Below, piece by piece: positions 2,841 through 51,089 of a stretch of 64,000 nt of DNA; the first letter of the stretch is position 1, and every line of letters starts with the position of its first letter. The notes beneath the pieces were generated by a model that was given only the letters and a program-made list of their open reading frames with translations, was not told where the DNA came from and searched no databases. This DNA comes from an uncultured Candidatus Peribacteria bacterium (GTDB lineage Bacteria > Patescibacteriota > Gracilibacteria > Peribacterales > Peribacteraceae), in the NCBI GenBank assembly GCA_964649695.1, contig CAZYQO010000002.1, forward strand, positions 66,728-130,727. Reading direction: 5' to 3'. A program made the position numbers and the translations under genes.

Positions 2841-4886
2841 TCAGGCGGGCAGGGCACGTTCACGCGCCAGATACTGCAGGATCGTCTCGATAAATGTGGC
2901 GTGACTCCAGGTGAGCGGGGAGACCGAAAGCGGCGCACCCGTCAGCGGATCCATCTGCTCCGGGAGCAGCCCTGCTGCGGAAGCCTTGGATGCCGCCCAT
3001 TCGATCGTGTCGCGGGCCTTGGCGAGTTCGCCGCGGGTTTTGGCACGTGCGATATTCCATTGGGCGAGCCACAGTGTCGTGATGATCCAGGGGTTGCCCG
3101 GCACATCCGCGGACGGAGATACCACGCAGTGGTACACATCACCCGTATAGCGTGCCAGGCCGCCGACGGCGGTATGCACGGCGAGTGTCGATGCCATCTG
3201 TTCCATGGTGGAGACCACGCGGGGGTCATCGGGCGGCAGCACGCCAAGCTTCCAGATGAAGGCGAGGCTCGCGTCGATGGTGTCGTCGCGGTGGGTGGTT
3301 ACGCCCTTCTCGCGGTCGATTTTCTTCATGAAACGCTTCTTTTGCTCATCAAACAGATGGAAGACCAGTGCCTGGCGCATCTGGTCAGCCACTTCCGAAT
3401 ACTTCTGCGAATGGCGAAGATGCCCCAGGGTCTGTGCGATGTGGGCGGCTGCCGTCAGGCCGGCGATGGTGCACGCGGTGGCGTAGGTGCCCACGCCGCG
3501 CTGCTCCTCCCACGGGTCATAGCTGGCCAGCGGCAGACCGCTTTCCGGCTCACGGAATTCCGCAAGGAATTCAGCGGCATGACGGATGAATTTTTCGTAG
3601 GTTTCCTGCAGGAATTCAAAGTCCTGCGTAAGTTCGAAGTGGTGCCACATGGCGTGCAACACCAGAGCGGTTTCGTCTTCCTGGATCGGCAGCTGCGGTT
3701 CGTTGTTTTTGTACCAGGCATGCCACGACGATCCCAAAGAGCCGTCCGGGTTGTATTTGTGCATCATGTAGCCGTCTGGGGTTTGCACTCGGCAGCAGAA
3801 ATCGAAGAAGCGGCGGGAGATCTCCCCGTATCCGGCGTCGTCGAGCGCCGTACAGACCAGCGCGCCGTCGCGCGGCCACACATAGGTGTATGTGTCGCGG
3901 TTGAAGGCCATGATGTCGCTGTCGGCAGCCGCAAGGATGCCGCCGTGATTGTCGGCGTGTGTGCGGATCGTCAGCAGACTGCGCTTGTACAGATCGATCA
4001 GATGGGGCGAGAGGGAGGTGACGCCGATCGGCGCCTTGTTCACCCAGCTTTTCCAGTAGTTCGCACAGTTGCGCTCCAGCCGTTCGGGCGTTTCGCTCAG
4101 CACCAGCTGCTGCAGCTTGATGACTTCGTCCAGCGTGGTGCCAAGACAGAGCCACAGAGCCACTTCCGTGACCTTTCCCGGTTCCACGATGCAATGGATG
4201 GCTGCGGTGGAATCCACCGATCCCTGTTCGATGGGGTGCTGGCTCAGCACGCCGTCTTCGGCATCCTTCCATGTGCCTTCGAGCCCGCGATAGTTGGCCT
4301 TGCCGGTGGTGAACGAGTTGATGCCGCAGCCGCCGACTTCGGTCATGCTGTGCAACACCGACGCGAACGGTCCGCCACGGTGACCGATCGTGCACTCCTC
4401 ACCGTTGGACGTTTGTCCACCGATCAGGAAGTACCGTTTTCCACGGAAGTGGATGAGGGAATTCGTGTACGGTTCGTAGAATGCGGTGTCTTTCTGCGTG
4501 TCGCCGTAGATGTGAAAATTGTGATTGAAAAAGAGGCGCACTTTCTGCGTTTCCTTGGCACTGCTTTTGATGAAAAAGCGGCGCAGCAAGACGTTGTGCA
4601 CCGGGTGGACGCAGTCTTCCACGGTCATGCTGATTCCCAGCTGCTCGTGCTCTGCATTGGACTGTGTGACGAGCGTTTCCAGTTTGTAGGCGGGCTGCAT
4701 TTTCCATGCGCTGTCGCCCAGCCAGGAAAACCCTTTGCCCTCCACAAACACGCCGACGCGATGCACGTTGCCGTAGGTGGTATGGTCTTCCATTCCCACA
4801 TAGGGAAAGTACAGGTCGCGCAGCTGCAGGCGGTCATCGAATGCCGCAAGCACGGAGCCGTTGCCGAGGACGAGGGAGCGGGGCAT
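2841..4886 (-). CDS. Glycoside hydrolase family 15 (glucoamylase/glucodextranase-like)
   Basis: 681 aa. Has the YVWPRDGA block and further (alpha/alpha)6 GH15-like blocks (GGILAAADSD, LPEQMDPLTG). Confidence 0.8.
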   Translation of the reverse strand: MPRSLVLGNGSVLAAFDDRLQLRDLYFPYVGMEDHTTYGNVHRVGVFVEGKGFSWLGDSAWKMQPAYKLETLVTQSNAEHEQLGISMTVEDCVHPVHNVLLRRFFIKSSAKETQKVRLFFNHNFHIYGDTQKDTAFYEPYTNSLIHFRGKRYFLIGGQTSNGEECTIGHRGGPFASVLHSMTEVGGCGINSFTTGKANYRGLEGTWKDAEDGVLSQHPIEQGSVDSTAAIHCIVEPGKVTEVALWLCLGTTLDEVIKLQQLVLSETPERLERNCANYWKSWVNKAPIGVTSLSPHLIDLYKRSLLTIRTHADNHGGILAAADSDIMAFNRDTYTYVWPRDGALVCTALDDAGYGEISRRFFDFCCRVQTPDGYMMHKYNPDGSLGSSWHAWYKNNEPQLPIQEDETALVLHAMWHHFELTQDFEFLQETYEKFIRHAAEFLAEFREPESGLPLASYDPWEEQRGVGTYATACTIAGLTAAAHIAQTLGHLRHSQKYSEVADQMRQALVFHLFDEQKKRFMKKIDREKGVTTHRDDTIDASLAFIWKLGVLPPDDPRVVSTMEQMASTLAVHTAVGGLARYTGDVYHCVVSPSADVPGNPWIITTLWLAQWNIARAKTRGELAKARDTIEWAASKASAAGLLPEQMDPLTGAPLSVSPLTWSHATFIETILQYLARERALPA

Positions 4887-4889
4887 GGG

Positions 4890-6170
4890 TTAGCGGGGAA
4901 GGTGAACGGATGTCTCACTGATGCCCAGGCGCATGCGCAGATCCTGCAGCGCATGGCTGAAACGTCGGAATGCTTCGTAGGGTGAGTCGTACGGACTGAA
5001 ATATTTGTGCACGTCACCGTCCGCCCAGTATTTGGTCGACATGTAGTAGAAGTGGTCGGAGGTCTGCAGTTTGCGCCAGTGCTCCACCAGATCGGGGTCA
5101 TTGCTCAGTTTCACGGGTTTTTCGAGTGCGTAGATCGCTTCAAGTGCGGCGTTCTGGATGTTGTTGCCGAGCCACGCGGAGAGATCGCGCTCACTGTCCG
5201 CCCATGACGTGTAGTTATGGGCGTCGTACACATGTTCGCGGTCGGTCTTCCATTGCGAGATCACCTGCGAGGGCGTGCGGACGACGATGCCGCGTTCCTC
5301 GAGCATGCGGGGAAGGGCGGCAAGAAAGTCGAAGATGCCGGTATCCGCCCACTGGTGTTCGCCGAAGGTCTCGTAGTCCATGAACAGATTGATGCTGTGT
5401 CCGCCCGTTTCCTTCACCCAGTCGGCAAACGTCTCCGCAAGCAGCGGATTGCCGCTGTGGTGATTGGCACTGAAACGGAAGGCGATGTCGTCCGAGAGGC
5501 GGTAGTGCTTCAGCAGGATGTGGATGTCGCGCGCAGCCTGTTTGTAGGGGCGCTCCTTGTTGATGATGCGCTCCATCCAGGTGGGCAGACGGAAATGCGG
5601 CGGGACGTACGGCACGGTTGGCGAGCGGTCTCCCAGGATGCCGTCCACGCCCTCGGCCACGATGCCCTGAAAGCCCATGAGGCGGACGATATGGGAGATT
5701 TCATTGCGATAAATGAGCTCGGTATTGCGAAACACCTTGGGCTTTTGGCCGAAGAGGCGATGGATTTCGCCCACGTGGCGTTTCACCTGTGCGCAGAATT
5801 CCGGCAGCGAACGCAGGCTGCTGAGCGAGTGGTAATACGTCTCCGCGAGGAATTCCACACGTCCCGTCTTCGCGAGTTTGCGGAACGAGGCGAGCACATC
5901 GGGCCCGTATTCTTTGCACTGGTCGAGGAACACGCCGGACAACGAGTACGACACGCGGAATTCCGGGTGCTGCTTCAGGAGCTTGAGGATGACCTTATTC
6001 GCAGGCAAATAGCACTTTTCAGCCACTTTTCGGAAGACCGCACGGTTTTTGACATGGTCGAAGTAGTCGAGGTCTTCGTTGCCGATGTCCGTCACGCGGA
6101 GATCCGTCAGGCGGTATGGCTGGTGTACCTGGAAGTACAGGCAGACGCCGGTCTGTTGCTTCTTCGTCAT
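4890..6170 (-). CDS. Glycoside hydrolase family 57 (alpha-amylase / alpha-glucan-active enzyme)
   Basis: CLYFQVHQPYRL N-terminus and MDYETFGEHQW block typical of GH57. Start placed at ATG 6170 (MTKKQQTG), overlapping the upstream TGA as ATGA. The 130-aa N-terminal extension in the ORF track lies inside the upstream gene. Confidence 0.8.
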   Translation of the reverse strand: MTKKQQTGVCLYFQVHQPYRLTDLRVTDIGNEDLDYFDHVKNRAVFRKVAEKCYLPANKVILKLLKQHPEFRVSYSLSGVFLDQCKEYGPDVLASFRKLAKTGRVEFLAETYYHSLSSLRSLPEFCAQVKRHVGEIHRLFGQKPKVFRNTELIYRNEISHIVRLMGFQGIVAEGVDGILGDRSPTVPYVPPHFRLPTWMERIINKERPYKQAARDIHILLKHYRLSDDIAFRFSANHHSGNPLLAETFADWVKETGGHSINLFMDYETFGEHQWADTGIFDFLAALPRMLEERGIVVRTPSQVISQWKTDREHVYDAHNYTSWADSERDLSAWLGNNIQNAALEAIYALEKPVKLSNDPDLVEHWRKLQTSDHFYYMSTKYWADGDVHKYFSPYDSPYEAFRRFSHALQDLRMRLGISETSVHLPR

Positions 6171-7378
6171 GAGCGGGTGGGGGAGGAGAGCAAGTGGTGA
6201 TAGATGTCTCGGATAAGTTTTGCCTGGTTGTGCCAGGTCAGGCGCTTGAGGACGCGGGGGGCTTCGATGCGCAGCTGTTGCGAGAGCACATGCTCGCGCA
6301 GGATGGTCATGATGCAGTCGGCCATTTTGCCGGTGTCCCAGTAGTCGACGGCAAATGCATGATCCAGCACTTCGCTGACGCCCGATTGTTTGCTGACCAC
6401 CACGGGTACGCCGTGGCCGATGGCTTCGAGCGCCACGAGGCCGAACGGCTCGCTGAGGGACGGCATCACAAAGCAGCTCGCATTCCGATACAACGCGTCT
6501 GCCTCCCTGCGGTTCACCTTGCCGGTGAACAGCATGCAGTCTTGCAGCCCCAGCGCGCATGTACGATCTAGCAGTTCGGGCAGCATGCCGCCTTCGCCGG
6601 CCATGACGAACTGTACGTCGGGTCGCAATGTGTGGATGACCGAGGCGATTTCCAGAAACTGCCAGGGGTTCTTTTGCACTGTCAGGCGCCCCAAAAAGAG
6701 CACCATGGGCGGCTTGTTCGATCCGAGTTGTGCCACGGGCGACGGCAGGATCTGGTCGTGGACATGGTGCCCGTTGTGTACGACGGAAATCTTGTCCGCT
6801 GGGATGCCGTAGTGCTGCACGATGAGGTTCTTCGTGTAGTTGCTGACCGCAATGATGCGGTCGGCGGATCGCAGGCCATGCATTTCGCGTTCAAAGATCC
6901 ACGGATGGGGCTGGAAGTTGGTGCGGTCGAGCTCGGTGGCATGGATGTGGGCGACGTGGGGCACGCCGTGGTGCTTCGCCGCGGTGATGCCCGCACCATA
7001 GGTCATCCAGTCGTGGGTGTGCACGATGTCGGGTTCCAGATGCGCCGTCACTTCCGCGCCGCGTTCGGCATAGCGCACGACAGCCTCTCCCATGTTCGGC
7101 CCATAGAGATCCTTCATGCCGGCGGAGATGGTGGAGACGCGTGTGGCGTAGGTTTCCACCGTGTCGTAGGGCAGCAGCAGTGAAGGCACTTGGATGACCG
7201 TGTGGCTTGCGTGCGGGTCGCCGTTGATGATCTCTCCGGTTGCGCCCATCGGCAGCACCAGGCTGACCTGCATGCCGTTGTGGAGCATGCCCTTCACGAG
7301 GCCTTCGCAGGCGACGCCCAATCCTCCCGAGTGATGAGGAGGATATTCCCAGCCGAACATGAGGCTATGTACGGACAT
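6167..7378 (-). CDS. Glycosyltransferase, GT4/GT5 glycogen-synthase-like
   Basis: 403 aa. N-terminal EYPPHHSGGLGVACEGL and C-terminal PSLSEPFGLVALEAIGHGVPVV (GT-B E-x7-E region). First gene of the GT-GH57-GH15 operon. Confidence 0.75.
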   Translation of the reverse strand: MSVHSLMFGWEYPPHHSGGLGVACEGLVKGMLHNGMQVSLVLPMGATGEIINGDPHASHTVIQVPSLLLPYDTVETYATRVSTISAGMKDLYGPNMGEAVVRYAERGAEVTAHLEPDIVHTHDWMTYGAGITAAKHHGVPHVAHIHATELDRTNFQPHPWIFEREMHGLRSADRIIAVSNYTKNLIVQHYGIPADKISVVHNGHHVHDQILPSPVAQLGSNKPPMVLFLGRLTVQKNPWQFLEIASVIHTLRPDVQFVMAGEGGMLPELLDRTCALGLQDCMLFTGKVNRREADALYRNASCFVMPSLSEPFGLVALEAIGHGVPVVVSKQSGVSEVLDHAFAVDYWDTGKMADCIMTILREHVLSQQLRIEAPRVLKRLTWHNQAKLIRDIYHHLLSSPTRS

Positions 7379-7548: not shown

Positions 7549-10326
7549 TTACAGTGATTTTCGTTCTCGTCTGCGTCGGACGAGCGCCAGCCCCGATGCC
7601 GCGCCAGCCGCCATGGCTGCGAGCGACCCCGGCCCCGTGGAACCGACAGGTGCATGGCTCGGAGGCGCCATCGTGACGGTCTGCAATTGCTGAGGCATGG
7701 CCGGTGCCGCCGCATTGGGGGGCAACTGCGATTGGGTGGGCAGCTCGCGCGCGCAGGTCGTGCTGCAACCGTCTCCTTCAATATGGTTGTGGTCGTCACA
7801 TTGCTCCTGGGGCGCATCCAGAATGCCGTCTCCACAGCGTGCAAGGCTGCAGTCGGTTCTGCAGCGGCTTCCCGGGCGATCGTTGTTTCCTTGGCCACCG
7901 TCACATTCCTCGCCCGCGTCTCGCTGGCCGTTGCCGCAGCTCGAGGAGAGCAGGCGGCAGGTTGTCGTACAACTCATGCCGGCAGGCAGTCGCTGTCCCA
8001 CGTCGCACTGTTCATCCAGTGCCCGCTCGATCACACCGTCCCCACAGAAGCCGCGCTCCAGCAGGCACTGTGCCGTGCAGCCGTCGCCGTTTTGGGTGTT
8101 GCCATCGTCGCATTCTTCATCGCCTTCCTTCGTACTATCTCCACACAGACCCGGAGCGGTGATGTCGTTGATGCCCAGTACGAGGCCGAAAGGGGATGAG
8201 CTTGTTGAGCTGCCGCCGAGAGAGAGCGGCAGCCAGCTGATAGCGGTGGATGCTTCGCCACAGGCGAAACAGGGTGAATCATTCGATTCTTGGCAGCTCT
8301 TTCCTGCGATTGCACAGTAGGCAGCCCCGCCATCCCCGCAGGCATGTCCGCTGCAGATTGCGCCGCCCGCACAGGCGAAACAGGGCGCATCGGCAGACTC
8401 CTGACATGTTTGGCCGGAAATGCCGCAGTAGGCTGTCCCGCCACCTGCACAGGCGTTTCCGTCGCAGGCCGAAGCACTGCAGACAAAGCAGGGCGCGGTG
8501 TCGCTGTTTTGGCAGGTTTGTCCGCTCACTGCGCAGAATTGTGTGCCCCCTTCGCCGCAGGCGTTGCCGCCGCAGGCGAGTGTTACTGCGGAACTGCTTG
8601 TTGTCGGGGTGGATGATAGTGCGCTGGAAGCGCTGGATGCGACTGATGAGGATATGCTGCTTCGCGACGATGTTGTGGACGATGTGGAGATCGTCGATGA
8701 CACGCTTGATGAGGATGTGCTGCCGGGCAATGATGATTGGGAAGATGAACTTCGGGAAGAAGAGCTCCTTGATGAGGGGCTTTTCGACGAAGACGATCTG
8801 CTGCTGGATGAACTGCTCGTCGGACGGATGCAGGCTGCAGCCTTGGGGGCGGGGATGGTGCAGCAGCGGGCGTAGCAAAGGCTGGGGGCGGCTGTACTGT
8901 CTCCAAAATCATCAGTACATAGCCAGCCATTGCCGTATAAACTGTTGCTATCGGTATCATCATTGCCAGTGGAGTTGTCCAAGAACCCACCGCCAGTGAC
9001 AGTTGTTCCTGTGACGCAATTGGTTTTTATTGTGGATTCGCCATTATTTGATCCTACAACTTGCGATACACAATTAAGCGCATCTCCATTCTTTTTGCGC
9101 GCACACACTGCATAGCAGTAGGAATCTGCATTTACAGAATCATCATCATAGCAATGCCATGCATTTCCTTCTTCCGGACGCAAAATATCCTCGTCTTTTG
9201 CAGGAGTGCCATCGGCAAACCCGCCACCGGTGATCGTAAATCCCGCAGGACATTGTGGTTGTGGGTGATTTTGCAGCGGACTTTTAACAGTGATTGTCAT
9301 AACGTCTATTGTTTCTGTTCTGCAGCATACAGCGCTGCAAATAGAATCACTGCCTGGAGGATTTTTTGCGCATTCCCATCCGGTATTGCCGCTTAATGGT
9401 CGCGAAACATCCAGACTATCGTCTGTGACGCCGTATCCGCGCCAGCCTCCGCCTACACTTAAATATCCAGCAGGGCAGTTGATGGCGATGTTGCCAACTC
9501 CACTAGCATCTTGATCTACCGTCATACACGCGCCGCCGGTCAGGGGCTTCATTACTTCTTGCTCCGTTGTGTCATACGTATCCTGGCAACCCGAATCCGC
9601 TAGGTCTTTCTGACCATCACCATCGTTATCGATGTTGTCGTTGCATTGGGAGATATTGCAGTTGGCAGGCCGCGGCGGCGGAGCGGCACTGCTGCGGCTC
9701 GATCTGCTGGCAGATGCGCAGTCCTGCGGACAGCAGATTTTACCAGGCACGGCGTCACAAATGGCCAAGTCCAAGCAAATCTCATTGCTCTGATGAATGC
9801 CGTCGCCGCAACGACCTCCACCGATCGTGCTTGATCCTCCTCCGCCCCCTCCACCGCCTCCTCCTGTCGAGTTGCCTTGTGACGCGGAACTGCTAGCCGG
9901 AGCCGTTGCTACCGAAATGGATACGGATCCTGATGGGCCGGGCACTTGTGACCAAGAGCCGGCTGCATAATAGGCATATCCACAGCTGAGATTGAAGGTG
10001 TCGCTCGCTCGGACTGAAACGGAAGCTATTCCCGAGAGGGACGTTGCACTTCCTGCCACAGTCTGTCCGGCACCATTGGTAAGGTTGCAGTGAAATTGTC
10101 CGTACTCGATGACTGCTCCGTTGCCATTCCACGTAGGTTGATCATATTGCCACTGAAACGTCACGTTCCCTCCTCCTGCCGGCAGGGAGGTTGGGGAAGC
10201 GACGAAAGTATTATGAATGGTCACAGCTGCACCCAGATTCGTTGACCTCCAACGTGCGGTAACCCCCAGCGCAATAAGAAACGCGATCGATGACAGCCCG
10301 GCAAAGAAGAGCGGCCGGCGGATCAT
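7549..10326 (-). CDS. Large modular cell-surface protein (925 aa). Modules in order: signal/anchor, Ig-like N-domain, Gly/Ser linker, IDNDGDG (MopE-like) motif, 3x CPxG-GGGF-GWxC module, Ser-rich stalk, 3x 36-aa Cys repeat, DUF4215/Myxococcus-type Cys-rich repeats, C-terminal sorting-signal-like tail
   Basis: N-terminal hydrophobic segment LFFAGLSSIAFLIALGV. CGDG..E.CDDGN..NGDGC repeats at aa 727-859. C-terminal HAPVGSTGPGSLAAMAAGAASGLALVRRRRERKSL. Start overlaps the upstream stop (ATGA, 10323-10326). Confidence 0.8.
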   Translation of the reverse strand: MIRRPLFFAGLSSIAFLIALGVTARWRSTNLGAAVTIHNTFVASPTSLPAGGGNVTFQWQYDQPTWNGNGAVIEYGQFHCNLTNGAGQTVAGSATSLSGIASVSVRASDTFNLSCGYAYYAAGSWSQVPGPSGSVSISVATAPASSSASQGNSTGGGGGGGGGGSSTIGGGRCGDGIHQSNEICLDLAICDAVPGKICCPQDCASASRSSRSSAAPPPRPANCNISQCNDNIDNDGDGQKDLADSGCQDTYDTTEQEVMKPLTGGACMTVDQDASGVGNIAINCPAGYLSVGGGWRGYGVTDDSLDVSRPLSGNTGWECAKNPPGSDSICSAVCCRTETIDVMTITVKSPLQNHPQPQCPAGFTITGGGFADGTPAKDEDILRPEEGNAWHCYDDDSVNADSYCYAVCARKKNGDALNCVSQVVGSNNGESTIKTNCVTGTTVTGGGFLDNSTGNDDTDSNSLYGNGWLCTDDFGDSTAAPSLCYARCCTIPAPKAAACIRPTSSSSSSRSSSSKSPSSRSSSSRSSSSQSSLPGSTSSSSVSSTISTSSTTSSRSSISSSVASSASSALSSTPTTSSSAVTLACGGNACGEGGTQFCAVSGQTCQNSDTAPCFVCSASACDGNACAGGGTAYCGISGQTCQESADAPCFACAGGAICSGHACGDGGAAYCAIAGKSCQESNDSPCFACGEASTAISWLPLSLGGSSTSSSPFGLVLGINDITAPGLCGDSTKEGDEECDDGNTQNGDGCTAQCLLERGFCGDGVIERALDEQCDVGQRLPAGMSCTTTCRLLSSSCGNGQRDAGEECDGGQGNNDRPGSRCRTDCSLARCGDGILDAPQEQCDDHNHIEGDGCSTTCARELPTQSQLPPNAAAPAMPQQLQTVTMAPPSHAPVGSTGPGSLAAMAAGAASGLALVRRRRERKSL
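7750..8148 (-). repeat. Coding repeats: about 4 copies of the Myxococcus-type cysteine-rich repeat (DUF4215-like) within the 925-aa protein
   Basis: GLCGDSTKEGDEECDDGNTQNGDGCTAQC / FCGDGVIERALDEQCDVG / SCGNGQRDAGEECDGG / RCGDGILDAPQEQCDDHNHIEGDGCSTTC. Confidence 0.7.
8257..8577 (-). repeat. Coding repeats: three tandem ~36-aa six-Cys units (AC..GG...C....G..C.....PCF.C)
   Basis: ACGGNACGEGGTQFCAVSGQTCQNSDTAPCFVCSAS / ACDGNACAGGGTAYCGISGQTCQESADAPCFACAGGA / ICSGHACGDGGAAYCAIAGKSCQESNDSPCFACGEAS. A single copy occurs in the 818-aa paralog (12312-12413). Confidence 0.75.
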
Positions 10327-12026: not shown

Positions 12027-14429
12027 CTAGCCTCGACGGTGTTTTCGCCGGATCCATGCCATCCCCGAAGCTGCTCCTGCAGCCATGATTCCCAGGGTGC
12101 CCGGTCCGGTAGCCCCCACAGGGGCGTGGCTGGCTGCAGGGTGTGGCTGCTGCTGCATCGGTTGGAGCTCTGCAGTAAGGGGTCGTAGTGGCGACACCAT
12201 GGCCGAGGAAGCGGTTCTGCTGCTGCCCGCGGAAGTGGGGGATTCCACACTGACAGTCGGCAGCGCGCGCATGGAAGAAACGGCTGTGACACTTGCTGTC
12301 GTACCTGCAGATAGGCATACGAAACATGGGGCATCGGCAATCTGGGCGCATCGCAGCCCATACCCGGTGCAATACGCCTGGCCGCCGATGGCGCAGGCGT
12401 CGACAGGGCATTGCTGTGCTATTGCCGCTGATGACGAACTTTCTGCACGTGCGATGTTGCTAACCGAAGAAGCGACTGCAATCGATGCAGACGAACGTAT
12501 GAAGGATGCTGCAGATGACGCTGTGGAAGACTCTATACTGGCCGAGGTGCTCGAATCAGTGGAGGAAATGCTGCTGCTTAAGGATTCCCCCGATACTCCT
12601 ACTTCCTGCACAGAGCTGGTGCTGGATTCCGTTGCTGCCATCTGCTGTTCAGAGGAGCTGCTGCCCAATAGAGCAGGAGCGGAAGACGGTATGGATGTGG
12701 CGGAGGAGGGGAGCTGCGGCGGCGGCAGCATGAATGGAGAGAGGGACGAAGAGGTGGATGAAAGTGATTGTTGCGACGAAAGCACCGAAGGCAATGATGA
12801 TGCGGTTACTCCGGCGGATGAAGCTGATTGGACAACAAGGGGGATCACCGGACCTGCGGAAAGCACGTCCTCGGGAAGAGTGCAGCATCGTGCGTAGCAG
12901 ATATTCGCTCCTGTGCCGCTTTTCTTAAGATTTCCGGTTTTACTGCATGCCCAGCCATCCGCTGTCGGCAAAGGCATGCTTTTATCCTGGTCATGATTGC
13001 TGGTGCTCTTATCTTCAAAGCCTCCACCGGTTACAAAGGTTCCCGGTGGGCAGTAGGCGATGGACTCCGGATCCTGTGCGCCGATGACCGATGTCGTTTT
13101 GCATACCATGATGTCGGATGTTTTTCGTTTACCACAAAGAGCAAAGCACCGGCTGCCGCTTTGTTGCTTGGAATCATCGTCGTAGCATGTCCAGCCGTTG
13201 GATTCATCTTGTGGTGCGAAGATGTCTTCGTCTTTTCCTGTTGTCCCGTCGATGAATCCGCCCCCTAGCAACTGTCGGTCAGGGGAGCAGGTGGGTGTCA
13301 GATGGTCACTGAGCCCTCCTTCGCGGTACACAATCGTGGAGTCATACAGGTTTGCATCGCAGCAGATAGCCGTGCAAGTACCCAGTGCATCGTCGCGGTT
13401 GCCTGTGCATTGCCAGCCGCCACCTTCTTCGAATGGCATGGATTGATCGAAGGTTTCGCCACCGCCATTGTTCCACCCGCCGCCCATAATGACGGTGCCT
13501 TTTGGACACGCCACTTTCACGGCACCGGATCCATAGAGCGAACGTTGAACAAACGTGCAGCTGCCGCCTGCAATTTCAGTAGTGATGGGCACGGAGACCG
13601 GATCCTTGCAGGTGACCGCATGACCAAGAAAATCGAAGATTCGTTTATAGAGCAGGCCGTCCTTGCCCGAGCATTGTGCTGAGAATCCCTGATCCTGTGG
13701 GCTGAACACGGCACCTCCGTGATTCTCATCCGGCGGGATGATCGCAAGCGCAGGCTCCTTGTTTTCGGGTATTTCTCCGATGAATTCCGGCTTTGTCTTG
13801 CCCCAGGCGACAGAGCCAATGGTCATTTTCCCACTGGATTCACGGTAGATTTTCTCGATGTTATTAAGCAAGACACTTCCACTTCCTCGTATCGTCCGAC
13901 AGGAGTTTGCGCTGTTCTCGTATCGCACGCGCCCAGAGAATGTGATGCCCAAATTTTCGGAAATATCATTGATGCGTGTCTGGCAATCGGCGCCAGCCGG
14001 GCCGAGATCCCCGCCGGCGTAGTCGTCGCCACCACTGAGAATCAGGCTGCCGCCCTTCAGGTAAAAGTCTTTGATGACGGCAACTTCTCCTGATTTGAAT
14101 GGGTATGATTCCCCGCCGCAGCCTCCATGGATCCAAAGTATGTTATATGAGGACAGCACATCTTTGGTGATTGTTTTGACCGAGAGGTGATTTTCGAGGA
14201 CAACGCCCGTACCCACAAGCGCTTTGATGTCCTGGAATTCTTGCACTTCGCCGTCACGACCGTACAAATTGGGCTGTGCGTTGAAATACAGTATGCGAGG
14301 GGGTGTGCAGGCAGTGTTTACAGTGGTATTGGAAATTTGAGCTTTCCAAGTATCGGGGAAGAACATCGTGAAGCTGCAAATAGTTCCAATGATGAGCGCG
14401 CCATAACTCCAGTAGATCTTCGGTTTCAT
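12027..14429 (-). CDS. Large modular cell-surface protein (about 800 aa): signal anchor, shared ~230-aa domain, 3x CPxG-GGGF-GWxC module, Ser-rich stalk, 1x 36-aa Cys repeat, C-terminal sorting-signal-like tail
   Basis: The ORF track starts at GTG 14483. ATG 14429 (MKPKIYWSYGALIIGTICSFTMFF) gives a typical signal anchor. C-terminal HAPVGATGPGTLGIMAAGAASGMAWIRRKHRRG matches the tail of the 925-aa protein. Confidence 0.75.
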   Translation of the reverse strand: MKPKIYWSYGALIIGTICSFTMFFPDTWKAQISNTTVNTACTPPRILYFNAQPNLYGRDGEVQEFQDIKALVGTGVVLENHLSVKTITKDVLSSYNILWIHGGCGGESYPFKSGEVAVIKDFYLKGGSLILSGGDDYAGGDLGPAGADCQTRINDISENLGITFSGRVRYENSANSCRTIRGSGSVLLNNIEKIYRESSGKMTIGSVAWGKTKPEFIGEIPENKEPALAIIPPDENHGGAVFSPQDQGFSAQCSGKDGLLYKRIFDFLGHAVTCKDPVSVPITTEIAGGSCTFVQRSLYGSGAVKVACPKGTVIMGGGWNNGGGETFDQSMPFEEGGGWQCTGNRDDALGTCTAICCDANLYDSTIVYREGGLSDHLTPTCSPDRQLLGGGFIDGTTGKDEDIFAPQDESNGWTCYDDDSKQQSGSRCFALCGKRKTSDIMVCKTTSVIGAQDPESIAYCPPGTFVTGGGFEDKSTSNHDQDKSMPLPTADGWACSKTGNLKKSGTGANICYARCCTLPEDVLSAGPVIPLVVQSASSAGVTASSLPSVLSSQQSLSSTSSSLSPFMLPPPQLPSSATSIPSSAPALLGSSSSEQQMAATESSTSSVQEVGVSGESLSSSISSTDSSTSASIESSTASSAASFIRSSASIAVASSVSNIARAESSSSAAIAQQCPVDACAIGGQAYCTGYGLRCAQIADAPCFVCLSAGTTASVTAVSSMRALPTVSVESPTSAGSSRTASSAMVSPLRPLTAELQPMQQQPHPAASHAPVGATGPGTLGIMAAGAASGMAWIRRKHRRG

Positions 14430-14652
14430 GTGCGAGAAGAATTCTACCCTGTTTTCATTTTTTGAGGCTAGTGAGAGCCACACACCTCAGTCGGTGTCTG
14501 TTGGGCTATCGTTTGTTCTTAAAAATTTACACAAAGTACATAATAATTTCTAATACTATTTGTACATACTATTTTACCGTAAAACACATACTCTCCTCCA
14601 TTCTGTAACAGCGTTTTTTAGGGCTCCCTCTAGAGCAAAAATGCACTTTTTC

Positions 14653-14668: not shown

Positions 14669-16984
14669 TTGGCTACTTCCATGGAAAATACAAATAGCGC
14701 ACCATTGGCTGATACCGAAGGATGGCGCTGGCTAGAGCGGCCAGATGTCACACATTTGCCATTTGTGAGGCCACAAAATGTTCTGCAGTCACAGTCGATA
14801 GATGGGCAGCCGAAAGTGGCGCAGAGAATGGCGAGTGTTTTTGTGCTGACACATGCAGAACATGTGAATCTGCCCCACATCATTTCACGACTGAGCGATG
14901 TACTGATCAAGGCAGGGGAGCAGTTTGAGTTGATAGTGATCGATGAGGGTAATTTTTATCTGAACACGCAGGATTATCTACGTGGTATCGCAGAGCAGTT
15001 GCCGCTGCAGGTTATCAAACCGGCCGTGCAGGGGGCTTTGACAAGTGCCGATCTTGAAAAGGCAAACGGTGATCGTCTCGTGATATTCGATGCGGATTTG
15101 CACCACGCACCCGATGTGATTGTGGACATGTTGCATGCTTTGGAGCAGCAAGATGTCGTTGTGGGTAGAGTTCCCTTGAAACGGATGCCATGGTACCGCG
15201 CAGTTCAGACAGTGTGTAGCAGGCTTCTCCTTCTGCCTGTCGCCTCGCTTTTTGCGGGAGTGCCACAGCCTGGCCAGCGTGCTTATCGAAGGGATGCCCT
15301 TAGTAAACTTGCTCAGTTTCGTCGATTCCGGGCGCAAGCTGCATTCGATACACAAGCACTCTTTTTTGCTAGACGGCTAGGATTGCGCGTTGGGTACGTA
15401 GAGGAGACTCTTGAGCCGGGCATTCTCTTTGGATGGACTGCACGACGCACGACGCGTCAGCTGACTGTCATGGGTGCAATCTATGCGTTGCGAGCAATCA
15501 TGATGACAGAGTTCGCGATGCCGTTCTTGTTCCCGCCAACACGCGCTGAATATTCAGCTTCAGGATTTACCAATGTGCGTGATTTTCTTTTTCTGTCGGA
15601 CTCAGAGAGTGCAAAGCAACACATCACTAAGGAAACAGTTACTTTGTGTTTTTGGGTAATCTTGCTAACTACACTCTGTATCGTAGGGGCAGCAGCGCTG
15701 TTCCAACAATCATGTCTTCGAGTTGTTCTAACGATGTTTTCAATGTTGTATCTTGCGCTGCTTTTCATAAAGCTATTTGTGACAATTCGAAGCACAAAAC
15801 ATTCGTATCTGCACGTTTCTCCCGCAGAAATCGCAACATTAAGTCCTCAGGATTTTCCCGTCATTTCCATACTCATTCCGTTGTACCGCGAACGCGAGAT
15901 TATCCCTCAAATCTGCCGCCGCCTTGCGGATCTTGATTATCCTGTCGATAAGCTTGATATAATTTTTATCTTAGAGTCGACCGACCGAGAAACCATCGAC
16001 GCGTTCCTCACAGCTAGGCCTCCGACGCATTTCAAAGCGCTACTTTCCCCTGATGTGCTACCAAAAACAAAGCCAAAGGCTCTCAATGTCGCCTTCCAAA
16101 AGTCGCGCGGTGAAGTAGTCGTAATTTACGATGCTGAGGTGTTGCCTGAGTTGGATCAGCTCAAGAAGGCCTGCTTTGCCCTGAAGAAGTATCCGGAGGT
16201 AATGTTCGTGCATACCCGATTGAACGTATATAACGCTGAATATAACTGGCTTACAAAGCTCTACACGGCCGAATTCTCTTTTTACTATGATTCATTCATT
16301 AATGGTTTAGTGAGCTTAAACATTCCTCTTCCCATCTCCGGTCACAGCATTTATTTCCGTCGCCACGTCATTGAGCAGGTTGGAGGTTGGGATCCCTATA
16401 ACGTTGCAGAAGATTGTGACATTGGTATTCGTATTTTCCGCCATGGTTTTGGGTGTGGAATTATGATCGATTCTTTTGCTTGGGAGCAATCCACCACAAC
16501 CATTCCCGCATGGGTGTCACAGCGTACTCGTTGGCTGAAGGGATTTTTGCAAACCACAATGGTGCATTTACGCTTCCCATTGCTGCTTAAGCAGGATGTT
16601 GGTGGATGGCGTAATTTTCTGTGGTTCCTGATTCTTGTTCCGGGGACAACCTTGGTAAATGCGCTTAATCTTCTCCAGTCTATTTTTCTGCTTGCGTGGT
16701 TTGTAACACATTCTTTGTATATCGAACTCGCATACGAGGGCTTGCCAATTTATGCAGCTATGTTCACCTTCATTGTTGGGAATTATCTCTTTACATTTTT
16801 TAACATATTAGGACTCTACACACGGGGGCTCTACGCCATCATGCTTTTGGCATACTTTTCGCCATTCTATTGGATTATGCTTGGCTATGCTACCGTGCGA
16901 TCCATTCTTGAGTTTTTCTTTGCACCGCGCCGTTGGAATAAAACAGTGCATTCAATGGCATCGACTAGTATCGCTAATACATAA
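14669..16984 (+). CDS. Two-domain membrane glycosyltransferase: N-terminal Dpm1/Ppm1-like GT2 fused to a processive (D,D,D,QxxRW) GT2 synthase with C-terminal TM helices
   Basis: Domain 1 (aa ~57-170): FELIVIDEGN ... LVIFDADLHHAPDVIVDML. Central TMs follow. Domain 2 (aa ~397-625): VISILIPLYRERE, VVVIYDAEV, NVAEDCDIGIRI, QRTRW at 16520-16534. The start may instead be ATG 14681. Confidence 0.75.
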   Translation: MATSMENTNSAPLADTEGWRWLERPDVTHLPFVRPQNVLQSQSIDGQPKVAQRMASVFVLTHAEHVNLPHIISRLSDVLIKAGEQFELIVIDEGNFYLNTQDYLRGIAEQLPLQVIKPAVQGALTSADLEKANGDRLVIFDADLHHAPDVIVDMLHALEQQDVVVGRVPLKRMPWYRAVQTVCSRLLLLPVASLFAGVPQPGQRAYRRDALSKLAQFRRFRAQAAFDTQALFFARRLGLRVGYVEETLEPGILFGWTARRTTRQLTVMGAIYALRAIMMTEFAMPFLFPPTRAEYSASGFTNVRDFLFLSDSESAKQHITKETVTLCFWVILLTTLCIVGAAALFQQSCLRVVLTMFSMLYLALLFIKLFVTIRSTKHSYLHVSPAEIATLSPQDFPVISILIPLYREREIIPQICRRLADLDYPVDKLDIIFILESTDRETIDAFLTARPPTHFKALLSPDVLPKTKPKALNVAFQKSRGEVVVIYDAEVLPELDQLKKACFALKKYPEVMFVHTRLNVYNAEYNWLTKLYTAEFSFYYDSFINGLVSLNIPLPISGHSIYFRRHVIEQVGGWDPYNVAEDCDIGIRIFRHGFGCGIMIDSFAWEQSTTTIPAWVSQRTRWLKGFLQTTMVHLRFPLLLKQDVGGWRNFLWFLILVPGTTLVNALNLLQSIFLLAWFVTHSLYIELAYEGLPIYAAMFTFIVGNYLFTFFNILGLYTRGLYAIMLLAYFSPFYWIMLGYATVRSILEFFFAPRRWNKTVHSMASTSIANT

Positions 16985-16986
16985 CT

Positions 16987-18732
16987 ATGCGTAACCCCTT
17001 TTTACTCAAAGGCGCAGAACGTGATGAGTTTTTGCTTATGTTAGTTGTGGCAGCCTTAGGCATATGCACTCTTTGGAACGTGATTGACGATAACATGATG
17101 TATTTCGACTTTGATACACGCTCACATTTGAACGTTGCACGCATGACTCTCGATAATTTAACGCCAGGGTTCAACCAGCTGGGTATTTGGAATCCACTGT
17201 TGCATATATTACTGCAGCCATTTATTTGGGTGTGGCCATTTTACACGTCGGGTGTCGCTGGCTTTTGTCTGCTTATCCCATGTCTATTTCTCAGTGTCGT
17301 CTTCCTTAGGCGTATTATTGTCGAATTGACCACCAATGAACTTTTGGGATCAGCAGGCGGTTTATTATTAGCTTTACATCCTTATGCGCTCTTTTTTGCA
17401 GTCGTGCCGATGACTGAGATGTTGCAAATGACATGCAATCTTGGTTCTGCATATTTCTTAACTCTTTGGCTGAAGAGATCTAGCTTGAAATTTTTGTTGT
17501 ACAGCGGCCTCTTTGCAGCGCTTTCCTGTATGGCTCGTTTTGAAAGCCTTGGACTAGCGCTTGCGATTGGCATTGTCATTGTCATTCATGGCCAATTTCT
17601 TCATAAGAAGGTTTCTGAAATTTTTGCACTATTACAATTATTTTTTCTCGTAGCTTTGCTAGGGATGGCATATTTGGTCATTTATGGAGTGGCATATATG
17701 GATGGGCCACTATCATTTTTGTCACTTGCGTCTTCTTCTGAGGTGGCGCAGCAAAAAACATTGTTGTTTACATTTCAAATTGTTACACATGGACTATTTC
17801 ATATTCATGGCATTCAACTTCTTATAGGCGCAATATGCGCCATCCTGGTGCTTATATTTTTTGCGCGTTCGTTTAAAGAGGAATTGTACGTGCTTTTTGT
17901 CCTTATCAATCCACTTATTGTGGTCTTTTATGCACTTTATACAAAGGCAGGAGTAATACTTTGGGTTCCCGAGCTTCCAAGAATAAACACAGGTCCACCC
18001 ATTGGATATTTTGCAGGAATTAGATTCCTATTGAGCTCAACGCCGTTTGTACTTTTAAGTATTTTTTTGGGGTTGTCTCTAATTCTCAAATATGCAGCCA
18101 GGCTAAATCGTTCGTATGTTCAAGTTTTGGTCATAGTTGTAGTGACATTTTTTATCGGCTCACAATCCATGCGTCTATTCAAAATTGAAAATGCAGCATT
18201 TCCTGCGGCTCAAAAAAGTTCTCAAACCGCATTTGAAATGCGTTTTCATCTGCAAATTGCTGAATATTTAAAAAATAATTACGATTATGGTTTAATCATT
18301 TATTCTCGTATCTCATCAGATATCTTGCAATATCATGCTCAGATCCCGCTAAAAAATTATATCTATACTGCAAACTATCCATATTTTGACCAAGCAGTTC
18401 GTTTTCCTTGGCTATTTTTGCGGTGGGTCATTCTGCCAACTACAGAAACATCTGGTCTATTGGTTGATATGAAGTATTCCGATGATTTTAATAAGTACTT
18501 TGAAAAAGTGCTTGCAGTTCCCGCCACTAAGCTCAAAGGATTTACAGTGTATCGACTGAGAGAAGATATCTTGCGAGAAGATTTGCTTAAATATCATGTC
18601 AATACTCAGGAAGTGCCTTCACTATGGAAGGTGACTCGCACATGGGATACGAATAATATAAACAGGATTCTTCATCTAGAAGATTCACCTTGGCACATTG
18701 AAAGAAGGTATAGCTCTACTAAAAAGTTATGA
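16987..18732 (+). CDS. GT-C superfamily membrane glycosyltransferase (ArnT/PMT-like, polyprenyl-phosphate-sugar dependent)
   Basis: 581 aa with more than 10 predicted TM helices. It has an acidic first-loop motif (VIDDNMMYFDFDTRSH) after TM1 and a C-terminal soluble domain. It starts 2 nt after the upstream gene. Family assignment rests on architecture and motif only. Confidence 0.55.
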   Translation: MRNPFLLKGAERDEFLLMLVVAALGICTLWNVIDDNMMYFDFDTRSHLNVARMTLDNLTPGFNQLGIWNPLLHILLQPFIWVWPFYTSGVAGFCLLIPCLFLSVVFLRRIIVELTTNELLGSAGGLLLALHPYALFFAVVPMTEMLQMTCNLGSAYFLTLWLKRSSLKFLLYSGLFAALSCMARFESLGLALAIGIVIVIHGQFLHKKVSEIFALLQLFFLVALLGMAYLVIYGVAYMDGPLSFLSLASSSEVAQQKTLLFTFQIVTHGLFHIHGIQLLIGAICAILVLIFFARSFKEELYVLFVLINPLIVVFYALYTKAGVILWVPELPRINTGPPIGYFAGIRFLLSSTPFVLLSIFLGLSLILKYAARLNRSYVQVLVIVVVTFFIGSQSMRLFKIENAAFPAAQKSSQTAFEMRFHLQIAEYLKNNYDYGLIIYSRISSDILQYHAQIPLKNYIYTANYPYFDQAVRFPWLFLRWVILPTTETSGLLVDMKYSDDFNKYFEKVLAVPATKLKGFTVYRLREDILREDLLKYHVNTQEVPSLWKVTRTWDTNNINRILHLEDSPWHIERRYSSTKKL

Positions 18733-19769
18733 AAACAAAATTACTATTTTGGGCAAAATTGGCAAAAGAAATTATTTTGAGAGTATCTGCATCCCTGCAA
18801 GATTGGGCATTTATGCTTCGTGTTCGGCCATCTCTATTGAGAGGCAGTAATTTTGTTGAGTTCTTGCGCGAATCTGCCGAATTTCCTGGGGGTATATACA
18901 ATCCGGGTGCAATCGAAGTTCATGGAGCTATTGTGACAGTCTTAAGGGGCGAGCAGTATCGTCCATTCCAATTGTATATAGATTCAACGAAAGCTCTGAA
19001 TTCATGTACCCCACTTCTGGCTTCATACAGTCAAGAAATGCAGCTAAAAAAACCACTGACTAAGCTCTCCCTGGCAGCCTTCCCCGAAAGAAGGACTCAG
19101 CGTTATGAAGATTTTAGATTATTTAGATTTCGAGATAAGATTTTTTCCAATCTTTGTGTTTTTATTCCAAATACAAATTCAGTTTGGCCTTCGGCCATTG
19201 ATTCGGGTAATTACAATCGTCAAGCTCTAGCTGAATTGGACTTACAAAGTATGAGTCTGAATTATGCAAAAGAAGTGCAAATAGATTTTCCCATGCATGG
19301 CCGAGAGAAAAATTTCATGTATTTTGAACACGAAGAAGATCTATATTTGCTGTATTCAATTTGTCCCTATATTTTGCTAAAAGCTCAAAATTGGCCTAAT
19401 GCTAATTTCGTAACAGTACTTCATAAAGAGCTGAATTTGTCTTTTGGTAAAAATAATCAACAAAAAATTCACTTAAGTACAAATCCAGTCGTGCTTGATG
19501 ATAAATATTTGGTCACAATTATCTCTCGTAAAGCCCACGGTTATGGGATATTTAAGACATTGTTCTCCACATGGGTCATTCTAATCGATCGTGCTACTCT
19601 AGAGCCGGTGAAAATCTCGAAACAATGCTTGACCTCAGGGCTCAGTGTATATTTTTCGAGTCTTATCGTCGAAGGCGATAGTTTGCTACTTTTTGGCGGT
19701 CAGGATGATAGGCGCTGCTGCTTTACTCGCTTGTCTAAAAAGGCGATCGAATTCGATAACATCGAATAG
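18729..19769 (+). CDS. Hypothetical protein, possibly a GH130/DUF377-like beta-propeller glycan-active enzyme
   Basis: 346 aa. Start overlaps the upstream stop (ATGA). Weak motif resemblance only: GIYNPGAI, YEDFRLFRF (like EDPR), REKNFMYFE (like EKNW.pF). Confidence 0.35.
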   Translation: MKTKLLFWAKLAKEIILRVSASLQDWAFMLRVRPSLLRGSNFVEFLRESAEFPGGIYNPGAIEVHGAIVTVLRGEQYRPFQLYIDSTKALNSCTPLLASYSQEMQLKKPLTKLSLAAFPERRTQRYEDFRLFRFRDKIFSNLCVFIPNTNSVWPSAIDSGNYNRQALAELDLQSMSLNYAKEVQIDFPMHGREKNFMYFEHEEDLYLLYSICPYILLKAQNWPNANFVTVLHKELNLSFGKNNQQKIHLSTNPVVLDDKYLVTIISRKAHGYGIFKTLFSTWVILIDRATLEPVKISKQCLTSGLSVYFSSLIVEGDSLLLFGGQDDRRCCFTRLSKKAIEFDNIE

Positions 19770-19809
19770 CATCAACACATATTTAAGATGCTGTTTATTA
19801 ATTTCAAAT

Positions 19810-21213: not shown

Positions 21214-21323
21214 GTATTTAATGTAACTCTAGCATCTATTTAATTTATTGTACATAATCGACCCTTTACCTGTAAAAAACGAGTAGGCGATTGCAATCGT
21301 CATTAGATCTTCTTATCTATATA

Positions 21324-21332
21324 TGCTATAAT
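21324..21332 (+). promoter_or_regulatory. Extended -10 promoter element TGCTATAAT positioned for a leaderless transcript
   Basis: TGCTATAAT is followed by 7 nt (atatatt) and then ATG 21340. No Shine-Dalgarno. Confidence 0.45.
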
Positions 21333-21339
21333 ATATATT

Positions 21340-22440: not shown

Positions 22441-22458
22441 TAAACAACATGCAGCTTT

Positions 22459-24456: not shown

Positions 24457-24471
24457 AACTGTATGGCGCTC

Positions 24472-24500
24472 ATTGTGAGCATTATGTGGCAAATTGTCAA
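24472..24500 (-). promoter_or_regulatory. Sigma70-like promoter TTGACA-N17-CACAAT
   Basis: On the minus strand, TTGACA (24495-24500) and CACAAT (24472-24477) are spaced 17 nt apart. ATG 24456 lies 15 nt downstream of the -10. Confidence 0.45.
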
Positions 24501-29155: not shown

Positions 29156-29229
29156 TGGAGCGGGTAGCGGGAATCGAACCCGCGTCCTCAGCTTGGAAGG
29201 CTGATGTACTACCATTGTACGATACCCGC
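29156..29229 (-). tRNA. tRNA-Gly (anticodon UCC), CCA encoded
   Basis: Hand-folded cloverleaf: GCGGGTA/TACCCGC acceptor, anticodon arm TCAGC-CTTCCAA-GCTGA, T-arm GCGGG-TTCGATT-CCCGC, terminal TCCA. Confidence 0.9.
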
Positions 29230-50102: not shown

Positions 50103-50178
50103 TGGTGGGTCGGGAGGGGTTCGAACCCTCGACCAATGCCTTAAAAGGGCACTGCTCTACCAGCTGAGCTACCGACCC
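50103..50178 (-). tRNA. tRNA-Lys (anticodon UUU), CCA encoded
   Basis: GGGTCGG/CCGACCC acceptor, anticodon arm GTGCC-CTTTTAA-GGCAT, T-arm GAGGG-TTCGAAC-CCCTC, terminal ACCA. Confidence 0.9.
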
Positions 50179-51014: not shown

Positions 51015-51089
51015 GTCCCCGTAGGTTAACGGATAGACCACTGGCCTCCGAAGCCGGGAATACAGGTTCAATTCCTGTCGGGGACACCA
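51015..51089 (+). tRNA. tRNA-Arg (anticodon CCG), CCA encoded
   Basis: GTCCCCG/CGGGGAC acceptor, anticodon arm CTGGC-CTCCGAA-GCCGG, T-arm ACAGG-TTCAATT-CCTGT, terminal ACCA. Confidence 0.85.

Follow-up and report, generated by a model that had tools for sequence, protein, structure and literature searches.

An uncatalogued C-terminal tail on large secreted proteins of Candidatus Peribacteria, and a candidate sortase for its processing

Do two neighbouring surface proteins of an uncultured bacterium end in a sorting signal that no catalogue holds, and, if so, which enzyme might read it? The question is raised by a stretch of 64,000 nucleotides (the window) from a Candidatus Peribacteria bacterium (GenBank assembly GCA_964649695.1, contig CAZYQO010000002.1, positions 66,728 to 130,727 of the forward strand), in which the genes for a 925-amino-acid (aa) and an 818-aa protein share a short C-terminal tail. 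The Peribacteria are uncultured, small-genome bacteria of the candidate phyla radiation (CPR). Judged from its sequence, the tail probably tags proteins for anchoring at the cell surface, a task in which an unusual sortase may be involved. The features concerned are as follows, in coordinates of the window (ORF, open reading frame; TM, transmembrane).

7549..10326, minus strand: gene for the 925-aa tail-bearing surface protein (ORF), with N-terminal signal/TM segment MIRRPLFFAGLSSIAFLIALGV
7741..8148, minus strand: Cys-rich acidic repeats (DUF4215 / myxo_disulf_rpt), aa ~727-862 of the 925-aa protein
7630..7656, minus strand: tail 1 signature motif H-A-P-V-G-S-T-G-P, aa 891-899
7579..7629, minus strand: tail 1 hydrophobic segment GSLAAMAAGAASGLALV, 17 residues, Ala/Gly-rich, small-xxx-small pattern
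7552..7578, minus strand: tail 1 basic end RRRRERKSL
7549-7551: tail 1 stop codon
10323..11999, minus strand: 558-aa secreted C-type-lectin protein between both carriers (Lectin_C, 54.8 bits)
12027..14483, minus strand: gene for the second tail-bearing protein (818-aa ORF)
12102..12128, minus strand: tail 2 signature motif H-A-P-V-G-A-T-G-P
12051..12101, minus strand: tail 2 hydrophobic segment GTLGIMAAGAASGMAWI
12030..12050, minus strand: tail 2 basic end RRKHRRG
12027-12029: tail 2 stop codon

The two tails and the catalogued signal models

The tripartite ending that the first-pass annotation had quoted for both proteins is present exactly as given: a motif, a hydrophobic segment and a basic end. 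The two tails are identical at 23 of 33 residues without a gap, which is far beyond chance and rules out a fortuitous or low-complexity similarity. Their nucleotide identity is 66%, and at 16 of the 23 shared residues the two genes use different codons, so that the tail peptide is under purifying selection and not a recent copy; recent duplication or gene conversion of the tails was ruled out on the same grounds. That annotation had also called the two genes paralogs. Both genes stand, with the strand corrected to minus; outside the tails the proteins align only over residues ~250-540, and it is in the central Cys modules that the 818-aa protein is paralogous to the 925-aa protein.

From the N to the C terminus, the 925-aa protein consists of the signal/TM segment, three Cys-containing beta-rich modules, a Ser-rich linker, CxxC modules, DUF4215/TIGR02232 repeats (TIGR02232, 66.1 bits against a cut-off of 20.8; DUF4215, 34.5 bits against 27) and the tail, with a Pro/Gln-rich linker between the repeats and the tail. 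An exact-sequence look-up of this protein in protein records gave no match; its homologs are few, all large ones terminate in the same tail, and P0002 and P0003 are tail-bearing homologs. The true start of the 818-aa ORF is probably the ATG at 14429; the resulting 800-aa product agrees with P0014, which, like P0004 and P0005, is an ortholog with the tail present. No DUF4215 match was obtained for the 818-aa protein in the Pfam and NCBIfam model scans. Within the window, only these two proteins carry the tail: it is not present on the 558-aa C-type-lectin protein, a relative in the same gene cluster; at its C-terminus this lectin protein has a domain homologous to the N-terminal one of the 818-aa protein (BLAST, 32% over 234 aa). 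A Cys-framed module (x3; pattern CP.G..(V/L)(T/S)GGG(W/F)…D…P…GW.C…C.A.CC) lies at 8900-9570 (residues ~252-492 of the 925-aa protein) and 12870-13600 (residues ~294-537 of the 818-aa protein); it also occurs in P0003-P0006, and no Pfam family covers it.

The sorting-signal models of NCBIfam 20.0 and Pfam were compared with the full-length window proteins and with isolated tails. As the first-pass annotation had stated, the tail fits no catalogued consensus: no sorting-signal model attains its cut-off on the full-length proteins. PEP_CTERM gave 8.1 bits against a cut-off of 16 on the full 925-aa protein and no reported match for the full 818-aa protein, the LPXTG-type model TIGR01167 had no match in the full window proteins, and nothing in Pfam matches the tail. 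Isolated tails scored as follows.

PEP_CTERM: 14-19 bits (best 18.9); cut-off 16
LPXTG_anchor: 12.9-18.1 bits; cut-off 15.9
GC_trans_RRR: up to 18.9 bits; cut-off 15.85
MYXO-CTERM: 12.5-18.0 bits; cut-off 20
IPTL-CTERM: up to 17.5 bits; cut-off 20.5
Rumino_NPXTG: up to 18.4 bits; cut-off 23.5
GVDTG_CTERM (NF058571): 9-16 bits, over model positions 22-44 only; cut-off 29

On LPXTG_anchor, the isolated window tail reached 14.1 bits against 15.9, and 15 of 118 tails matched at E<=0.01; GlyGly-CTERM gave no match to the tails at E<=10. The alignments of PEP_CTERM (profile positions 4-23 of 24), IPTL and GC_trans_RRR begin at or beside the P of TGP, covering the helix and the arginines and missing the signature motif, whereas those of LPXTG_anchor and MYXO-CTERM begin 3-4 residues upstream, inside the motif, with scores no higher. 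Because the same tails come near the low cut-offs of several mutually exclusive models, the scores mostly reflect the shared tripartite architecture and not one family. The tail has no PEP, Cys, GG or L-P; in particular, the Cys of the MYXO-CTERM signature is missing from the motif of both window tails and of the family consensus. The possibility raised at first pass, that an existing model might claim the tail, was not borne out, the isolated-tail scores being spread over several unrelated models. In short, the tail module is claimed by no NCBIfam or Pfam sorting-signal model and is uncatalogued, and no earlier description of it or of 'GVDTG' was found in the searchable literature. As a tripartite C-terminal signal for sorting or anchoring, it is of a general kind already known.

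The tail family, its carriers and its lineage

A profile built from six tails was searched exhaustively against 1.84 billion protein cluster representatives and recovered 373 of them at E<=1e-3 (22 at E<=1e-10). Among the matches listed, 150 of 150 align at the extreme C-terminus, in proteins of 36-3171 aa, the very short ones being mis-called ends of longer ORFs (>=808 aa, possibly truncated, and 1786 aa). Database 'proteins' of 36-83 aa are thus mere tails of these ORFs; giant low-complexity tail genes are broken by public gene callers (L001:4489-9849, L003:648-3074; P0007-P0011), and one tail fragment, a JGI record, is named 'MYXO-CTERM domain-containing protein'.

Column frequencies were taken from 153 tails anchored on T-G-P, selected by hidden Markov model (HMM), so that the following percentages are somewhat inflated. 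Counting from the Thr as position 0, the tail has His at -6 (54%), Pro at -4 (92%), V/A/I/L at -3 (92%), Gly at -2 (87%), Thr (92%) or Ser (8%) at 0 (together 100%), Gly at +1 (100%), Pro at +2 (100%), Gly at +11 (100%), Ala at +12 (97%), Gly at +15 (99%), Trp at +18 (83%) and Arg at +20 (96%). No gap from the motif to the arginines was needed in any of these tails, and the layout is fixed: the family consensus is HAPVGDTGPAAVAVMAAGAAAGxAWMRRRRK, in which a juxtamembrane signature P-[VAIL]-G-x-[TS]-G-P, often with His ahead, is abutted by a 17-residue Ala/Gly-rich helix, (A/G)(A/S/T)(L/V/I)A(V/I)MAAGAAAGxAW(M/V), and followed by a basic end RR[RK][RK], the Arg/Lys cluster lying exactly 20 residues past the Thr. 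The narrower motif proposed at first pass, PVG[SA]TGPG[ST]L, holds for both window tails but is too restrictive for the family, in which P-[VAIL]-G-x-[TS]-G-P leads into the MAAGAAAGxAW helix.

The 17-residue segment contains 41% Ala and 16% Gly, and its simple Hessa insertion energy (a crude, position-independent sum) is positive in all 153 tails, which resembles the protein A sorting signal and not glycophorin A. In tail 1 of the window, the mean Kyte-Doolittle hydropathy of the segment is 1.61 and the simple Hessa sum is +2.6 kcal/mol. A degenerate variant, …APLQDAGPPALLFMSACMAAGAGYLYKRARN (L008:1844-2743, minus strand), has Ala in place of Thr, so that rare carriers lack the supposed cleavage residue.

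The carriers are large and share an architecture: a variable head, a Ser-rich linker, a disulfide-rich stalk and the tail. DUF4215 (the TIGR02232 'myxo' Cys-rich acidic repeats) was found in 65 of the 70 carriers scanned (~93%), and the carrier alignment places the repeats directly ahead of the tail, with a variable Pro/Gln-rich linker between. The 818-aa protein and its orthologs bear the tail without DUF4215, and the tail is therefore separable from the repeats, though rarely separated. The N-terminal parts are of diverse kinds (Vgb-lyase-type propellers, FG-GAP, LamG, DUF11, CARDB, SGL, Ig-like and others), many have signal-like segments, and the median Cys content is 6.4%. The carriers are evidently the 'large, cysteine-rich extracellular proteins' highlighted by the Peribacter genome paper, which does not mention a C-terminal tag; this set of giant, fast-evolving proteins, which stands out most in Peribacteria genomes, is thought to mediate attachment (PMC4736985).

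One subgroup of carriers, with 'TSHxPAGxTGP', lies beside a conserved gene set in 14 loci. In 12 of them (L002, L003, L019, L033, L044, L063, L069, L073, L075, L085, L099 and L112), a ~170-200-aa single-pass protein with a LPSSWTLREVRG motif, for which Pfam gave no match, is paired with a ~125-aa Zn-ribbon protein, MRCPQCGKRVPVDF (for example L073:2691-3410 and L073:2437-2907); in L059 and L086 the single-pass protein was seen alone, without its Zn-ribbon partner. A small lipoprotein-like gene is present in five of the subgroup's loci.

The distribution of the tail was surveyed at the DNA level with a pattern for P-x-G-x-T-G-P-x8-G-A-x2-G-x2-W-x-R-R, which was validated on the window and is estimated to catch about half of the tails. 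It matched 110 stretches in the species-representative genomes of 185,579 species. A genuine tail stands at the C-terminal end of an ORF in at least 106 of the 110 loci, and most of these ORFs are long (up to >2400 aa); in L024, L042, L049 and L077 the match lies at a block edge and was left out of the tail listing. Two loci, with DNA of 68-70% GC and labelled Solirubrobacterales and Archangium, were judged to be chance matches. All genuine matches are in metagenome-assembled genomes (MAGs) of Candidatus Peribacteria, Peribacter, Peribacteraceae or Peregrinibacteria, or on contigs with Peribacter-like neighbour genes. On the otherwise-labelled contigs, namely L056 (JAIPIN010000002.1, 'Kiritimatiellales'), L004/L009 ('Gracilibacteria') and L022/L025 ('bacterium'), those of L056, L004/L009 and L022 have neighbour genes mostly 66-94% identical to Peribacter MAG genes; L092 (JBJHAW010000052.1, 'Planctomycetaceae') is placed with Peribacter by its tail protein alone (~55% identical). 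These labels point to mis-binning or label differences.

The tail-carrying assemblies number about 60; the strict pattern found 11 loci in one Peribacter MAG, and a 1.07-Mb single-contig genome has five tails within 32 kb. On these profile and pattern matches, the tail is a discrete, sharply defined C-terminal module limited to one lineage, the Peribacteria (CPR/Patescibacteria), where it ends hundreds of large secreted proteins, with several to more than 10 copies per genome. The first-pass annotation had considered that it might be a feature of the two window paralogs only, with no enzyme to process it; instead, hundreds of proteins in ~60 genomes bear it, and the lineage has a candidate sortase.

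Candidate enzyme and competing explanations

No sortase is encoded within the 64-kb window (phmmer with SrtA and with the lineage's own sortase), in line with the first-pass remark that no sorting enzyme was visible there. Sortases do occur in tail-bearing MAGs of the lineage (L013, L014 and L054), and at least one MAG has a tail locus and a sortase on separate contigs (L039 and L114). They score 63.6-85.1 bits on Pfam Sortase (PF04203) and 48-59 bits on TIGR01076 (cut-off 39), and 20-71 bits on the class A-F and GN models, for which the cut-offs are 140-166 (best, class D, 50-71); their closest PDB relatives are of class C/D at E~1e-8. An alignment of 11 sequences has H163 (IAGHSS), C233 (LITC) and R242 invariant. 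The conserved gene neighbourhood, TsaD-sortase-Lgt-RNaseHII-Mur ligase, marks the sortase as housekeeping, and this unclassified housekeeping sortase is the leading, though unproven, candidate enzyme for the tail. The sortase gene always adjoins that of the prolipoprotein diacylglyceryl transferase Lgt (L014:4779-6376, L013:1414-3050, L114-L117), which suggests that two surface-anchoring enzymes are expressed together. In the complete gene table of Peribacter riflensis there are two srtA matches, one of them beside a 'pappalysin-like' Cys-rich protein (PMC4736985, supplement 2).

The lineage also has small secreted proteins (~180 aa) that end in P-P-L-A-P-T-G, a helix and RR (L053:4710-5258, plus strand; L045:2589-3182, minus strand), with 20 residues from Thr to RR and Pro at -4, as in the TGP tail. 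This LAPTG end is a canonical class-E-like LAxTG signal. The small LAPTG-protein gene comes after a gene for a thrombospondin-type-3-like Ca-binding repeat protein.

We tentatively regard the tail as a non-canonical sortase-processed signal, [VAIL]-G-x-T/G (the stroke marking the cut), with a confidence that falls a little short of even. The N-terminal signal would export the protein through Sec, and the weakly hydrophobic helix and the arginines would keep its C-terminus in the cytoplasmic membrane; the housekeeping sortase of the lineage, with intact His, Cys and Arg and of no defined class, would then read [VAIL]-G-x-T-G as a variant of LPXTG/LAXTG, cut between Thr and Gly and pass the protein to a peptidoglycan precursor, so that the variable head domains would be displayed on the disulfide-rich stalk. 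In favour of such a signal we count the core [VAIL](-3)-G(-2)-x-T(0)-G(+1), which is LPXTG/LAXTG with Gly at -2; the LAPTG proteins of the same lineage, with matching spacing and Pro at -4; and the fact that, of the recognised sorting-enzyme families, sortase alone was seen in the lineage. That the organism is a peptidoglycan-bearing monoderm was counted likewise. The weak 17-residue segment, with positive insertion energy throughout, and the Pro/Gln-rich linker ahead of the motif were counted for a cleaved signal over a permanent anchor.

Several observations weigh against this reading. LPXTG signals usually have a hydrophilic spacer between motif and helix (Haft, bioRxiv 10.1101/2023.06.07.544157), which the tail lacks. 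Position -2 is Gly and not Pro or Ala, and the conservation of the helix and of the Pro at +2 far exceeds what a peptide discarded by a sortase would need. The 65 of 70 carriers with DUF4215 mean that the tail could be an inherited stalk-plus-anchor cassette instead of a portable signal. Finally, in an unbiased sample of 39 sortase-centred metagenome loci (400 kb), tails were found in one only. A sortase gene does lie 1-2 kb from a tail gene in three loci (L013, L014 and L054), but these were ascertained via their tails; there being no tail enrichment at the sortase-centred loci, the adjacency carries no weight as evidence. Unlinked sortase and tail genes are, however, also expected of a system with one enzyme and many substrates.

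Instead of being cleaved, the tail may serve as a type I membrane anchor, a permanent C-terminal TM cassette that is passed on together with the DUF4215 stalk as a family of paralogs expands; we consider this possible, though on balance doubtful. The small-xxx-small helix (AAGAAAG) would then pack with itself or with a membrane partner, and P-x-G-x-T-G-P would be a rigid hinge, possibly O-glycosylated at the Thr. The position of DUF4215 just upstream of the tail in 65 of 70 carriers fits such a cassette, as do the missing spacer and a helix that is conserved as much as the motif and without indels; yet the conservation is discontinuous, the variable Pro/Gln linker parting the tail from the repeats, and DUF4215 is missing from some carriers, such as the 818-aa protein of the window. 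No enzyme is genetically linked with the tail genes (neighbours of 110 loci; 39 sortase-centred loci), and genes for protein O-mannosyltransferase and other glycosyltransferases recur near tail genes and in the window; both points count in favour of an anchor. However, the 17-residue segment is weak for ectodomains of 1000-3000 aa, and T/S-G-P, invariant in proteins with unrelated heads, and P(-4) and G(-2), nearly so, look like a site that an enzyme recognises.

Recognition need not be by a sortase. A hitherto unrecognised intramembrane enzyme, comparable to exosortase/archaeosortase, rhombosortase or the CPBP myxosortases, could recognise both the motif, at the face of the membrane, and the conserved helix, although we consider this unlikely. 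The geometry is that of PEP-CTERM/PGF-CTERM (a three-residue signature on the helix, then Arg), the PEP_CTERM alignment over positions 4-23 misses only the PEP, the helix is strongly conserved, and spacer-less signals have so far been paired with multi-pass intramembrane enzymes (Haft, bioRxiv 10.1101/2023.06.07.544157). On the other side, exosortase, archaeosortase, EpsH, CPBP, CAAX, PrsW and 'intramembrane' are all missing from the complete Peribacter riflensis table (an annotation table, not an HMM scan), and rhomboid appears in it as one sub-threshold match only (PMC4736985 and its supplement). A phmmer search with E. coli GlpG gave nothing in 0.87 million residues of six-frame ORFs of >=80 aa from 0.89 Mb of lineage DNA. 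ORF clustering around the 110 tail loci found LCP, GT4, protein O-mannosyltransferase, SLH proteins, acyltransferases and a lineage-specific small-protein trio as recurrent neighbours, and no recurrent multi-pass enzyme; the Pfam/NCBIfam scans of 76 multi-TM ORFs reported the 25 commonest families, so that singletons may be missed. Two PrsW-like matches in these scans were not located. The CPR lineage is not known to have an outer membrane, which also speaks against an enzyme of this kind. That the tail is cut by a membrane-embedded enzyme of a family not yet tied to sorting, and so represents a fifth prokaryotic C-terminal sorting system, is quite improbable; if true, that system would be in an episymbiont-type CPR lineage without exosortases, rhombosortases or CPBP myxosortases.

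That the tail is a divergent member of a catalogued signal (PEP-CTERM, MYXO-CTERM, LPXTG anchor, IPTL-CTERM or GVDTG-CTERM) is highly improbable, for although isolated tails reach or approach low cut-offs (PEP_CTERM, 18.9 against 16; LPXTG_anchor, 18.1 against 15.9; GC_trans_RRR, 18.9 against 15.85) and the JGI record bears a MYXO-CTERM label, the same tails match five mutually exclusive models at similar scores, the full-length window proteins pass none, PEP, Cys, GG and L-P are all lacking, and GVDTG_CTERM gives 9-16 bits against 29.

Neighbouring genes, meaning and known systems

Three glycogen/alpha-glucan genes follow immediately downstream of the 925-aa gene (window 2841-7378, minus strand), an envelope-glycan/surface gene cluster adjoins the 818-aa gene (window 14669-24492), and the five tRNA genes of the window are ordinary.

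2841-4886, minus strand: GH15 glucoamylase-like gene
4890-6560, minus strand: GH57 gene
6167-7378, minus strand: GT4/starch-synthase-like gene
14669-16984: double GT2 protein
16987-18732: 9-TM PMT_2-like protein
19810-21213: polysaccharide pyruvyl transferase
21340-22440, plus strand: LRR protein
22459-24492, minus strand: LRR protein
29156-29229: tRNA Gly-TCC
50103-50178: tRNA Lys-TTT
51015-51089: tRNA Arg-CCG
53327-53403: tRNA Gly-GCC
53668-53741: tRNA Gly-CCC

Because protein O-mannosyltransferases lie near tails in other genomes too, glycosylation of the Ser/Thr-rich tail-bearing proteins is plausible.

What is added here to the earlier observation, whose interpretation as an uncatalogued sorting-signal-like tail is supported, is a family-wide consensus, the restriction to Peribacteria, the coupling to a DUF4215 stalk and a candidate unclassified sortase. 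As a tag, the tail is a simple means of listing the surface proteome of the lineage and of mending many broken gene calls, and as a lineage marker it is specific enough to flag mis-binned contigs. Together with the unclassified sortase it makes a testable enzyme-substrate hypothesis for a [VAIL]-G-x-T-G-P signal. If the link to the sortase is true, the known range of sortase recognition motifs comes to include a compact form with no spacer; should it fail, the tail is an orphan sorting signal, as MYXO-CTERM was for a decade, and its enzyme is worth hunting.

Four known systems were compared with the tail. GVDTG_CTERM (NF058571), for which no description of host range or enzyme was found in the literature, has a T-G signature at the same compact distance from the C-terminus, the T-G of the tail falling on model positions 23-24 of 44; however, the upstream half of the model is unmatched by the tail, and the scores stay far below the cut-off. 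The MYXO-CTERM/myxosortase system (TIGR03901, TIGR03382) shares large TIGR02232/DUF4215-rich carriers and a tripartite, Arg-rich end, and in Myxococcota MYXO-CTERM often follows the same Cys-rich acidic repeats (TIGR02232) as does the tail in Peribacteria. It differs in its defining invariant Cys, which the tail lacks, in the CPBP protease, for which the complete Peribacter riflensis table has no entry, and in belonging to another phylum.

In the PEP-CTERM/exosortase and PGF-CTERM/archaeosortase systems (TIGR02595, TIGR04126), as in the tail, a three-residue Pro/Gly signature abuts the helix, ~20 residues separate the signature from the Arg cluster, and the signals are lineage-restricted and multi-copy per genome; the PEP_CTERM model also aligns with the helix and Arg part of the tail. 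The tail has neither PEP nor PGF, however, exosortase and archaeosortase are not annotated in the complete Peribacter genome, and its host, which is no archaeon, lacks an outer membrane.

From LPXTG/LAXTG the tail differs in that position -2 is Gly (87%) and never Pro, where LPXTG/LAXTG have Pro or Ala; in two prolines, an additional conserved one at -4 and an invariant one at +2; in the lack of a hydrophilic spacer, T-G-P being followed directly by A/G-A/S/T-L/V/I-A-V-M; in a hydrophobic segment that is short (17 residues) and conserved in sequence (MAAGAAAGxAW); and in that the Peribacteria sortase fits none of the classes A-F or GN. In both, nevertheless, a tripartite C-terminus is found on Sec-exported surface proteins of a monoderm with peptidoglycan, T-G is invariant and position -3 hydrophobic, a weakly hydrophobic segment is followed by an Arg/Lys cluster and preceded, upstream of the motif, by a Pro-rich region, and many substrates per genome go with an unlinked housekeeping sortase, as the candidate enzyme would be here.

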